Source of the DNA: Dictyostelium discoideum
Lineage: Eukaryota
Assembly (NCBI GenBank): GCA_000004695.1
Contig: CM000150.2
Span: 3,840,001 to 3,904,000 of the forward strand
Direction of reading: 5' to 3'
Length of the DNA: 64,000 nt
Shown here: in pieces, positions 7,028 through 8,476 of the stretch
How the letters are laid out: the number at the start of each line of letters is the position of its first letter
Position numbering within the stretch: the first letter of the stretch is position 1
Made by a program: the position numbers and the translations under genes
Notes under the pieces: model-generated
Database searches by the model: none
What the model was told of the DNA's origin: nothing
What the model saw: the letters and a program-made list of their open reading frames with translations, nothing else

Positions 7028-8476
7028 ATGGCTAATCGTTTACTCAATGTTGATGTAAGTTTATTTTCATTTAATCTTATTATTATTATTATTTTTATTT
7101 ATTTATTTTATTTATTTTAATATTATCTTTATTAACTATCCTATAATTTACTTTTTATTTCAATGTTTCATTTTTGGTTTTTTTTTTTTTTTTAATCTAA
7201 ATTCTAAATAGATGAGAAAAAATAACGTCGTAACTGACGATGATGATTGGGAAACAGAAAGTGATTATGTAAGTTTTTTAAAAAAAATAAAATAAAAATA
7301 AAAAAAACATCATTTTATTAACATTATTTATTTTCATTTTATTTTTTTGAAATTATATAGGTTGTAAGTTTTTAAGATTTATTTAGGTATTGATTTTATT
7401 ATTTTATTGAATTGGATTATTTATTTTTATTTTTATCATTATCAAATAAATAGAATACAGATAATATTGATAATTCAAAACAAACTCAAAAAACTGTAGT
7501 TCCAGTTAGAGCATCAGAAATTGGAAAAGATATGCTTTCAAAACAAAAACCAGTGGATCAAGTACCAAGTTCACCTGTAGGAACAAGATTTGGAAATCAA
7601 ACAACAAACACATACACTCCACCTGGTGTTGTTGTTTCAAAGAAGCCTGCTGCTGCTCCATCTAAACCAGCTGCACCAGCTCAAACATCAACCTCGTCAA
7701 TTGCTTCCAAATTCTCACAACCAGCTGCTCCAGCTCAAACCCCAGTTAAACCATCTGCTCCAGTTTCATCAGTTGCTTCTAAATTCTCACAACCAGCTGC
7801 TCCAGCTTCAACTCCAGTTAAACCATCTGCTCCAGTTTCATCAGTTGCTTCCAAATTCTCTCAACCAGCCGCCCCAGCTCCAGTTAAAGCTGCTCCAGCT
7901 CCAGTTAAAGCCACCCCAGCTCCAGTTAAAGCTGCCGTTCCAGTTAAAGAAACACCACCACCAGCTGCACCAGCCAAAAAACCACCACCACCACCAAAAA
8001 GAGTTGAACCAGTTTATGAAGAACCAGTACAAGAAGAACCACAACAAAATTATGAAGAACAACAACAATATGATCAACAAAGTTATGACCAACAACAATA
8101 TGACCAACAAAGTTATGATCAACAAAGTTATGATCAACAAGGATATGATCAACAAGGATATGATCAACAAGGTTATGATCAACAACAACAATACGATCAA
8201 CAACAATATGACCAACAAAGTTATGATCAACAAGGTTATGATCAACAACAACAATATGATCAACAAGGTGACGACCAACAACAATATGATCTTTCATCAT
8301 ATCCTCAAGCTCAAGCACTTTATGATTATGTTGCTCAACAAGAAGGTGATTTAACATTTTACACAGGTGATATAATTTATGTATATGATACCTCTGACGA
8401 AAGTGGATGGTATTCCGGTCAATTGGCTGACGGTTCTAATGGTTCATTCCCTAGTAATTTTGTCCAACTTTTATAA
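7028..8476 (+). CDS. Cortactin/HS1-like protein with an N-terminal acidic DDW (Arp2/3-binding NtA-like) motif, a Pro/Ala-rich repeat region, a QQ(S/G)YDQQ repeat block and a C-terminal SH3 domain; exons 7028..7054, 7212..7268, 7454..8476
   Basis: The three exons are in phase 0 with GTAAGT donors at 7055 and 7269 and acceptors at 7210-7211 and 7452-7453. The N-terminus MANRLLNVD|MRKNNVVTDDDDWETESDY resembles the cortactin/HS1 NtA 'DDW' motif (human cortactin ...[10 protein letters not shown]). There are three ~24-aa repeats SVASKFSQPAAPAxTPVKPSAPVS, then EPVYEEPVQEEP and (YDQQ)n. The SH3 is ALYDYVAQQEGDLTFYTGDIIYVYDTSDESGWYSGQLADGSNGSFPSNFVQLL. A possible additional micro-exon between 7269 and 7453 cannot be excluded. 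Confidence 0.6.

Follow-up and report, generated by a model that had tools for sequence, protein, structure and literature searches.

At positions 7028-8476 on the + strand of the 64,000-nucleotide stretch of Dictyostelium discoideum DNA analysed here (GenBank assembly GCA_000004695.1, contig CM000150.2, positions 3,840,001 to 3,904,000 of the forward strand; hereafter, the window) lies a three-exon gene, for which we propose, with a probability of about 60%, that it encodes an SH3 adaptor that would dock on the Arp2/3 complex. An N-terminal acidic (NtA) motif of the cortactin type appears to be set on a tail of the Abp1 type, and Arp2/3 binding is what we infer from that motif. The parts of the gene on which this reading is based are as follows.

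7028..7054, + strand: exon 1, 27 nt, coding MANRLLNVD, with the start context aaaacATGg and a GT donor immediately 3'.
7212..7268, + strand: exon 2, 57 nt, coding MRKNNVVTDDDDWETESDY, with an AG acceptor and a GTAAGT donor; it holds the inverted acidic (NtA) motif of the cortactin type.
7236..7268, + strand: putative Arp3-binding peptide DDDDWETESDY, D18 to Y28, with the W22 codon at 7248-7250.
7361..7363, + strand: probable micro-exon GTT (Val29), at the site 7359-7369, with tatatAG before it and GTAAGT after it.
7454..8476, + strand: exon 3, 1023 nt to the end of the TAA stop (8474-8476), an open frame coding a linker, a basic Pro/Ala-rich segment, an acidic Y/Q/D/E segment and an SH3 domain.

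GC content is 24.6% in the window, and in the gene it is 33-39% in exons versus 11% in introns. Both introns run from GTAAGT to AG and the three exons join in frame into 368 amino acids, so the coordinates and the frame of the original prediction, which a model had made from the letters alone, were right. The syntenic locus of Dictyostelium citrinum (L002) has at the same place an annotated gene of 371 amino acids with the same three exons, and this length is that of the three-exon model. Exon 1 is identical in the two species at 26 of 27 nt (96%), with one synonymous change, and exon 2 at 52 of 57 nt (91%), with four synonymous changes and one conservative non-synonymous change; the introns are 56-73% identical (56% for intron 1). 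Over the whole protein, amino acid identity is 94% to D. citrinum and 63.5% to an ortholog in L055, a metagenomic genomic contig of 31% GC from a more distant dictyostelid-like organism. There the gene is a single uninterrupted open reading frame (ORF) of 367 amino acids, which starts with MTNKLVGNYLDV / MTNKLVGNYLDVRNKKYNEEDDDDWDTDADFVNEANIDNSK, has an in-frame stop just 5' of its ATG, and continues through four KF-motif repeats, KKPPPPPKR, EPVYE and a YDQ array to the SH3 domain. By these comparisons the gene is real, and the uninterrupted ORF of L055 establishes that the acidic N-terminus and the SH3 domain are in one protein. The proposed joining of the 27-nt and 57-nt first exons to the SH3 frame is likewise borne out by the three-exon gene of D. 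citrinum and the intronless ORF of L055.

A model in which the gene is abpE, the gene of Dictyostelium Abp1 (dAbp1), with ADF-H exons further upstream was rejected, as the upstream gene on the same strand ends at 6750 and L055 has its in-frame stop before the ATG. An exact-sequence look-up in a collection of 15 billion proteins found none of the window protein (368 or 369 amino acids), a 314-aa ORF and the D. citrinum and L055 orthologs; D. citrinum Abp1 and redB are present in the same collection, which has no entry for D. discoideum Abp1. Since the family is apparently missing from this collection, the absence of matches there is no sign of rarity.

The motif in exon 2 can be compared residue by residue with a known structure. 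In a 2.9-Å cryo-electron microscopy structure of Cort1-76 on Arp2/3, the ordered residues of cortactin are 20-29 only; W22 occupies a hydrophobic pocket of Arp3, between its subdomains 3 and 4, and D20, D21, E23, D25 and D27 face basic residues (PMC10613254). These residues share the Arp3 site with the acidic domains of nucleation-promoting factors (NPFs) and Arpin, and the polarity of the cortactin peptide is opposite to that of the NPF acidic domains (PMC10613254). Cort1-33, little more than the motif itself, has a dissociation constant of 2-5 µM for Arp2/3 and does not co-activate it (PMC10613254). Over cortactin 20-29 the window protein reads D20 D21 W22 E23 T24 E25 S26 D27 Y28 (V29). The Trp residue bears number 22 in both proteins and the acidic residues at 20, 21, 23, 25 and 27 are all kept, in agreement with the earlier claim of a DDW at the NtA position of cortactin. 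The sole other contact change from cortactin to the window protein is F-to-Y, and V29 depends on the predicted micro-exon.

Profile statistics on the N-terminus proved unable to establish NtA homology, and a degenerate DNA pattern was adopted after that: DDW[DE]T[DE]xx[FY]VN was back-translated into a pattern of 33 nt and about 41 bits. In metagenomes it had matches in 79 contigs, in frame in 79 of 79 and nearly always 4-46 residues from an N-terminal Met, and in 596 Gb of prokaryotic genomes it had none. By these counts the DDW match is well beyond what chance would give in D/E-rich sequence, a doubt that had been attached to the original prediction. The majority of the matches are genuine cortactins, with an MWK... 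start, HS1 repeats and an SH3 domain, as verified with Pfam for L015 and L047. Among 41 distinct NtA cores the unconstrained positions are P/A/S and then D/N/T/S, which fits the S-D of the window protein, and the window motif matches the consensus.

Several results weigh against the proposed reading. A profile search with the N-terminus (hmmsearch against 1.84 billion representatives) gave no HMMER link to cortactin and returned only P0021 itself, a repeat-less protein described below, and an irrelevant partial match; a word-index search with a two-sequence N-terminal alignment gave one candidate, and none scored. As profiles give no such link, the motif may go back to a common ancestor with that of cortactin or may be convergent. 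The flanks of the cortactin motif are absent as well: there is no MWK... leader, no SE[EK]EQRWG.K segment and no predicted equivalent of the amphipathic, Arp3-contacting helix I55-T76, the last two being flanks with a part in co-activation and in binding to the branch. Positions 12-24 after DDW are strongly conserved in the 41 NtA cores, and the window protein has TDNIDNSKQTQKT there. Moreover, the annotated three-exon form is without V29, and against the PDB the SH3 domain is not cortactin-specific, as no cortactin SH3 is in the top 60 matches (phmmer). Formally, and judged on the sequences, the two proteins share a short linear motif whose position and context are conserved, rather than a domain whose homology has statistical backing. 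Past the motif, a further segment is conserved.

7505..7576, + strand: conserved linker VRASEIGKDMLSKQKPVDQVPSSP (aa 47-70); the L055 equivalent is VRASIVGRDLLEKQAPIDKVPTSP.

This linker lies 26-38 residues past the Trp, roughly at the place of the Arp3-binding helix of cortactin (PMC11102864). VRASEIGKDMLSKQ was considered as an equivalent of that helix, and this is noted as a remark only: the spacing fits, but AlphaFold2 gives no helix there, at low confidence.

The last residue of the putative docking peptide would come from within the second intron, where the sequence makes GTT at 7361-7363 a probable 3-nt micro-exon. Its inclusion would give 369 amino acids and split 'intron 2' into 92 + 90 nt in the window and 71 + 97 nt in D. 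citrinum, which are introns of ordinary size. AG-NNN-GTAAGT occurs once across both strands of the window (128 kb), in which GTAAGT has 10 occurrences on the + strand, and has a single occurrence, at the corresponding site, in the 22 kb of the D. citrinum locus. The sequence AGGTTGTAAGTTTTTA is identical in the two species and forms an identity island within a diverged intron. Val29 would change ...SDY|NTDN... to ...SDYVNTDN..., restoring [FY]-V-N and the last residue of the cortactin peptide. Without GTT, a one-residue gap separates L055 (DFVNEANIDNSK) from the window protein (DY(V)NTDNIDNSK), and Val29 closes the sole gap both to L055 (DFVNEANIDN) and to P0021 (SSFVNTT). The presence of V-N after [FY] in all 41 NtA cores is by construction of the search pattern, and the D. 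citrinum annotation (371 amino acids) is without the micro-exon. The original prediction had called for a micro-exon in 7269..7453 to be excluded; pattern uniqueness, conservation in D. citrinum and the L055 gap instead favour one. It would be a concrete correction of the annotation, and an unusually small exon for this genome.

The combination of NtA and SH3 without cortactin repeats is found in independent sequences, namely P0021/L033/L079, L032 and L055/L076, of which L055 and L076 are dictyostelid orthologs. P0021/L033/L079 is a complete 323-aa ORF with an upstream in-frame stop on a metatranscriptome-like contig, and its order is GGDDDDWETDSSFVNTT, a P/A-rich region with AAKFNQPAAAPA, a second acidic W motif DEDDGGWDDEP, an acidic Y-rich tract and SH3. 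L032 (a 524-aa ORF) starts with the NtA DDDDWETEADFVN, followed by an E/R/K/A-rich coiled-coil-like stretch of about 250 residues, a PEPEPE/EEQPVEE acidic tract and an Abp1-type SH3 domain that is 68% identical to that of P0015.

The motif was also seen on other kinds of protein. In L066 (=P0155, 800 amino acids) a cortactin-type NtA, MADDDDDWETDADYVNDLTEEQQRAFGNKETM, which continues with the cortactin-like TEEQQRAFGNK, heads a genuine fimbrin/plastin with two EF-hands and four CH domains (E=1e-140 versus plastin-3), and the GC-rich eukaryotic contigs L024, L050, L059 and L031 have the same kind of N-terminus. Judged by the sequence of L066, where the putative Arp3-docking motif is joined to an actin bundler, this suggests that the NtA module is portable. 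In L049 and L053, short ORFs on contigs of 65-70% GC without any Pfam domain, DDW[DE]T[DE]xx[FY]VN is found about 45 residues into the protein, behind a K/E-rich stretch.

The remainder of the window protein is coded by exon 3 and comprises four features.

7697..7880, + strand: three tandem repeats of about 24 residues, SS[IV]ASKFSQPAAPA..PVKPSAPV (SSVASKFSQPAAPA...PVKPSAPV), found by Tandem Repeats Finder (TRF).
7976..8002, + strand: KKPPPPPKR, a polyproline/PxxPxK-R motif identical in D. citrinum and L055 and a candidate ligand of SH3 or profilin.
8003..8305, + strand: acidic region, EPVYEEPVQEEP and then 13 YDQQ units; TRF finds 15.1 copies of a 15-nt period at 8060-8291.
8312..8470, + strand: C-terminal SH3 domain, Pfam SH3_1 with E=3e-13 at aa 315-362, with an AlphaFold2 predicted local distance difference test (pLDDT) score of 95-98.

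Much of what had been predicted for this region was recovered. The three Pro/Ala repeats of 24 residues appear as a 72-nt period with 2.6 copies and 91% match (KFSQPAAPA at residues 115, 139 and 163), the acidic Y/E/P tract EPVYEEPVQEEP is present, and the C-terminal SH3 domain is found both by Pfam and by AlphaFold2. The array of about 18 YDQQ-type units was an overcount, given the 13 exact units and 15.1 copies of the 15-nt period. The Pro/Ala-rich segment is basic, with an isoelectric point of 10.65 (~10.7), and the acidic segment has one of 4.05 (~4). The motif [KR]F[SNQ]QP of the repeats is also found in L055 (four copies), in P0021 and in dictyostelid Abp1 (TVANKFQEQ, NVLNRFQP). In dAbp1 a Pro motif binds the SH3 domain of the same molecule (PMC3708727), and KKPPPPPKR may be regarded as a candidate SH3 or profilin ligand.

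A Pfam scan of the protein found only SH3, with no HS1_rep (E<=1), ADF-H (PF00241), WH2 or other domain, and the same scan detects HS1_rep in the metagenomic cortactins L015 and L047. AlphaFold2, run with an alignment on the product of exon 3, gave pLDDT <60 nearly everywhere outside SH3 and no further, actin-binding fold hidden in the rest; low-complexity sequence makes up about 85% of the protein. The predicted absence of cortactin repeats therefore stands, as HS1_rep is absent at E<=1 and there is no fold outside SH3. On this model the protein, of about 40 kDa, is largely disordered, with SH3 as its sole folded part.

It is to Abp1 that the region behind the motif is closest. The best database matches of the full protein are amoebozoan proteins with ADF-H and SH3, i.e. 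Abp1, among them P0001 of Dictyostelium purpureum with 165 bits (phmmer). EPVYEEP and the (QQYDQQ)n array are common to the window protein and the Abp1 proteins of D. purpureum and D. citrinum (P0001, P0003), and D. purpureum Abp1 has two copies of the [KR]F motif in the same order as in the window protein. The SH3 domain is 79% identical to that of L055, 57-60% to those of D. citrinum and D. purpureum Abp1, 49-56% to other Abp1-type SH3 domains, 34-45% to those of 13 metagenomic cortactins and human CTTN/HS1, and 42% to the C-terminal SH3 of Grb2; the SH3 sequences of human CTTN, HS1, DBNL, yeast Abp1 and GRB2, and that of human ARPC4, are secondary comparators only, and the main comparisons are based on retrieved sequences and the papers cited. 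It has the Abp1-type loop D[TQ]SD[EP][SD]GW, longer by one residue, and is without the cortactin signature IEMIDDGWW. The SH3 domains of P0021 and L032 behave likewise, being closest to the Abp1 type and having the longer loop. The best PDB matches are generic (Grb2 C-SH3, SH3RF1, sorbin, PACSIN, Ysc84, myosin-I and Abp1), and the shortness of SH3 domains stands in the way of a robust tree. The original description of a cortactin/HS1-like protein holds for the N-terminal motif, and the SH3 domain and the whole tail behind the NtA are closest to amoebozoan Abp1. The order of dAbp1 is ADF-H, a basic GPA-rich region, a highly acidic region and SH3 (PMC3708727). In sequence terms, the window protein is this architecture with ADF-H replaced by a cortactin-type NtA.

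These affinities can also be read as those of an Abp1 paralog, a duplicated 3' half of abpE that lost or never had ADF-H and gained a DDW that converged on the same pocket of Arp3, in parallel to the two DDW motifs of fungal Abp1. In function, an Abp1 would then be split in two, with Arp2/3 binding on the part coded here. The similarity of the SH3 domain to those of ADF-H+SH3 proteins (49-60%, with the longer loop, and the same for P0021 and L032), the EPVYEEP, (QQYDQQ)n and KF motifs in common with D. purpureum and D. citrinum Abp1, and the 165 bits to P0001 all agree with such a duplication. The DDW motif was not found in the dictyostelid Abp1 sequences retrieved, and P0021 has its second, Abp1-like acidic W motif DEDDGGWDDEP. 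However, convergence must then have yielded 11 ordered residues, DDWET[DE]x[DS][FY]VN, together with the W22 position and the polarity after the Trp, for a pattern with 0 chance matches in 596 Gb, whereas the motifs of fungal-type Abp1 are internal and without ET.x.FVN. We consider this reading possible, though on the unlikely side. An Abp1-like tail and a cortactin-homologous NtA are compatible, so that the two readings can both be true.

If the protein is the Arp2/3-docking adaptor that we propose, residues 20-29 (DDWETESDY + V) would dock on the acidic-domain hot spot of Arp3, at subdomains 3/4, with the inverted polarity of the cortactin NtA. With W22 in the hydrophobic pocket, the basic rim would face the five acidic residues. 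The Abp1-type tail may recruit, or be recruited by, proline-rich partners of the kind bound by the dAbp1 SH3 domain, which binds PakB (PMC3708727); the SH3 domain and the PPPPPKR site would then connect Arp2/3 to Abp1-type partners. The protein might serve as a tether between SH3 ligands and Arp2/3, or as a rival of the acidic tails of NPFs, Arpin or coronin for the Arp3 site. At the branch, cortactin also uses residues 24-54, the helix I55-T76 and its repeats along the daughter filament (PMC11102864). Because the cortactin repeats, ADF-H and the helix 55-76 are all absent here, bridging of Arp3 to the daughter filament or strong co-activation is improbable, and a protein that docks on Arp2/3 as an adaptor, or competes for the Arp3 site, is more to be expected than a branch-bridging stabiliser.

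Taken further, such competition would make the protein an Arpin-like inhibitor or buffer of Arp2/3, with a motif that fills the Arp3 site without delivering actin or stabilising branches and an SH3/Pro-rich tail that sets its location. Cortactin 20-29 indeed lies on the NPF/Arpin site and Cort1-33 binds without co-activating (PMC10613254), and the window protein has no repeats, WH2, C helix or NtA helix. But the cortactin NtA speeds the release of VCA and so promotes branching (PMC11102864), so that occupancy of the site need not inhibit, and we regard pure inhibition as unlikely. It is very unlikely that the motif has no role with Arp2/3 and sits on a disordered SH3 scaffold, e.g. a Q/Y-rich condensate-forming adaptor, with an incidental likeness to cortactin: no sequence-search statistic ties the N-terminus to cortactin and about 85% of the protein is low-complexity, but the motif is under purifying selection versus D. 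citrinum (4 synonymous:1 non-synonymous), is kept in the 63%-identical ortholog while the adjoining linker diverges, and belongs to a pattern exclusive to the N-termini of actin-regulator-like proteins.

Published surveys date the origin of cortactin to Holozoa or to the ancestor of choanoflagellates and animals (PMC4824007, PMC2824662), and in the literature searched, the coverage of which was incomplete, no account of a cortactin-like Dictyostelium protein was found. We put forward, tentatively and with the odds somewhat against it as a whole, that the NtA is an ancient portable Arp3-docking module older than Holozoa. An amoebozoan 'proto-cortactin' of NtA, disordered tail and SH3, paralogous to Abp1, would have preceded holozoan cortactin, which would have arisen by insertion of the F-actin-binding repeats; other protists would have fused the module to fimbrin (L066), and V29 would come from the conserved 3-nt micro-exon. 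Inclusion of this micro-exon could tune Arp2/3 affinity. A conserved amoebozoan family with the exact Arp3-contact peptide and none of the F-actin-binding repeats would date this mode of Arp2/3 binding at least to the common ancestor of Amoebozoa and Opisthokonta. An Arp2/3-binding function that is associated with Abp1 in fungi would be located in an organism whose Abp1 is without DDW motifs. Moreover, a genetically tractable and highly motile cell would offer a natural 'NtA-only' protein, in which docking on Arp3 and displacement of NPFs could be told apart from the bridging of filaments.

The genomic neighbourhood was also surveyed. Convergent with the NtA-SH3 gene, at a distance of 432 nt, lies redB (8909-11073, - strand), an NADPH-cytochrome P450 reductase with flavodoxin, FAD-binding and NAD-binding parts in two ORFs that overlap by 4 nt; its fragment 8909-10087 shares 97% identity with ACTFIV_000391 of D. 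citrinum. No ortholog of the NtA-SH3 gene was found near redB in Heterostelium album, Tieghemostelium lacteum and Acytostelium subglobosum (L003-L005), and the convergent neighbour in L055 is a 314-aa ORF at 221-1165 (+), not redB. Synteny is not kept beyond the closest relative, D. citrinum. A gene of the Arp2/3 complex is in the window too.

52235-53044, + strand: ARPC4 (p20-Arc), in three tblastn segments that are 59-76% identical to human ARPC4.

From the NtA-SH3 gene it is about 44 kb away, on the downstream side, in line with the predicted distance of within 45 kb. Because about 20 ORFs intervene, this linkage is treated as coincidental.

Among known systems, cortactin/HS1 resembles the window protein in its N-terminal inverted acidic motif with W22, DDWET[DE]x[DS][FY]VN, and in the order of NtA, a disordered Pro-rich and acidic Tyr-containing region and a C-terminal SH3 domain. 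Both also have a [KR]xF[EQS] motif before the Pro-rich part (KSRFEDI, TNKFEDI and KNRFEQL in metagenomic cortactins). Unlike cortactin/HS1, the window protein has no 37-aa F-actin-binding repeats, no long helical domain, no MWK... leader, no SE[EK]EQRWG.K segment and no I55-T76 helix, and the SH3 domains are only 34-45% identical. In the Abp1/drebrin-like family, here dAbp1 (abpE), the whole region corresponding to that behind the NtA is collinear (basic, acidic, SH3), with EPVYEEP, Y/Q/D/E repeats and KF motifs. In contrast to that family, the window protein has no N-terminal ADF-H, for which there is no room upstream as the preceding gene ends at 6750, and has an N-terminal cortactin-type DDW that the retrieved dictyostelid Abp1 proteins do not have.

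The acidic (A) domains of WASP-family NPFs, Arpin, fungal Abp1 and myosin-I likewise have an acidic cluster round a single Trp, and the Arp3 pocket that the window motif is predicted to occupy is theirs too (PMC10613254). However, they are C-terminal or internal, with their conserved acidic residues before the Trp, whereas in the window protein the motif is N-terminal and conservation follows the Trp (ETESDYV), which implies the inverted polarity. Class I NPFs (WASP/SCAR/WASH) differ further in that the window protein has neither WH2 nor C elements and bears its acidic motif at the N-terminus. Because the cortactin repeats, the NtA flanks and the ADF-H of Abp1 are all absent, the window protein should be filed with neither the cortactin nor the Abp1 family; it joins one signature element of each.

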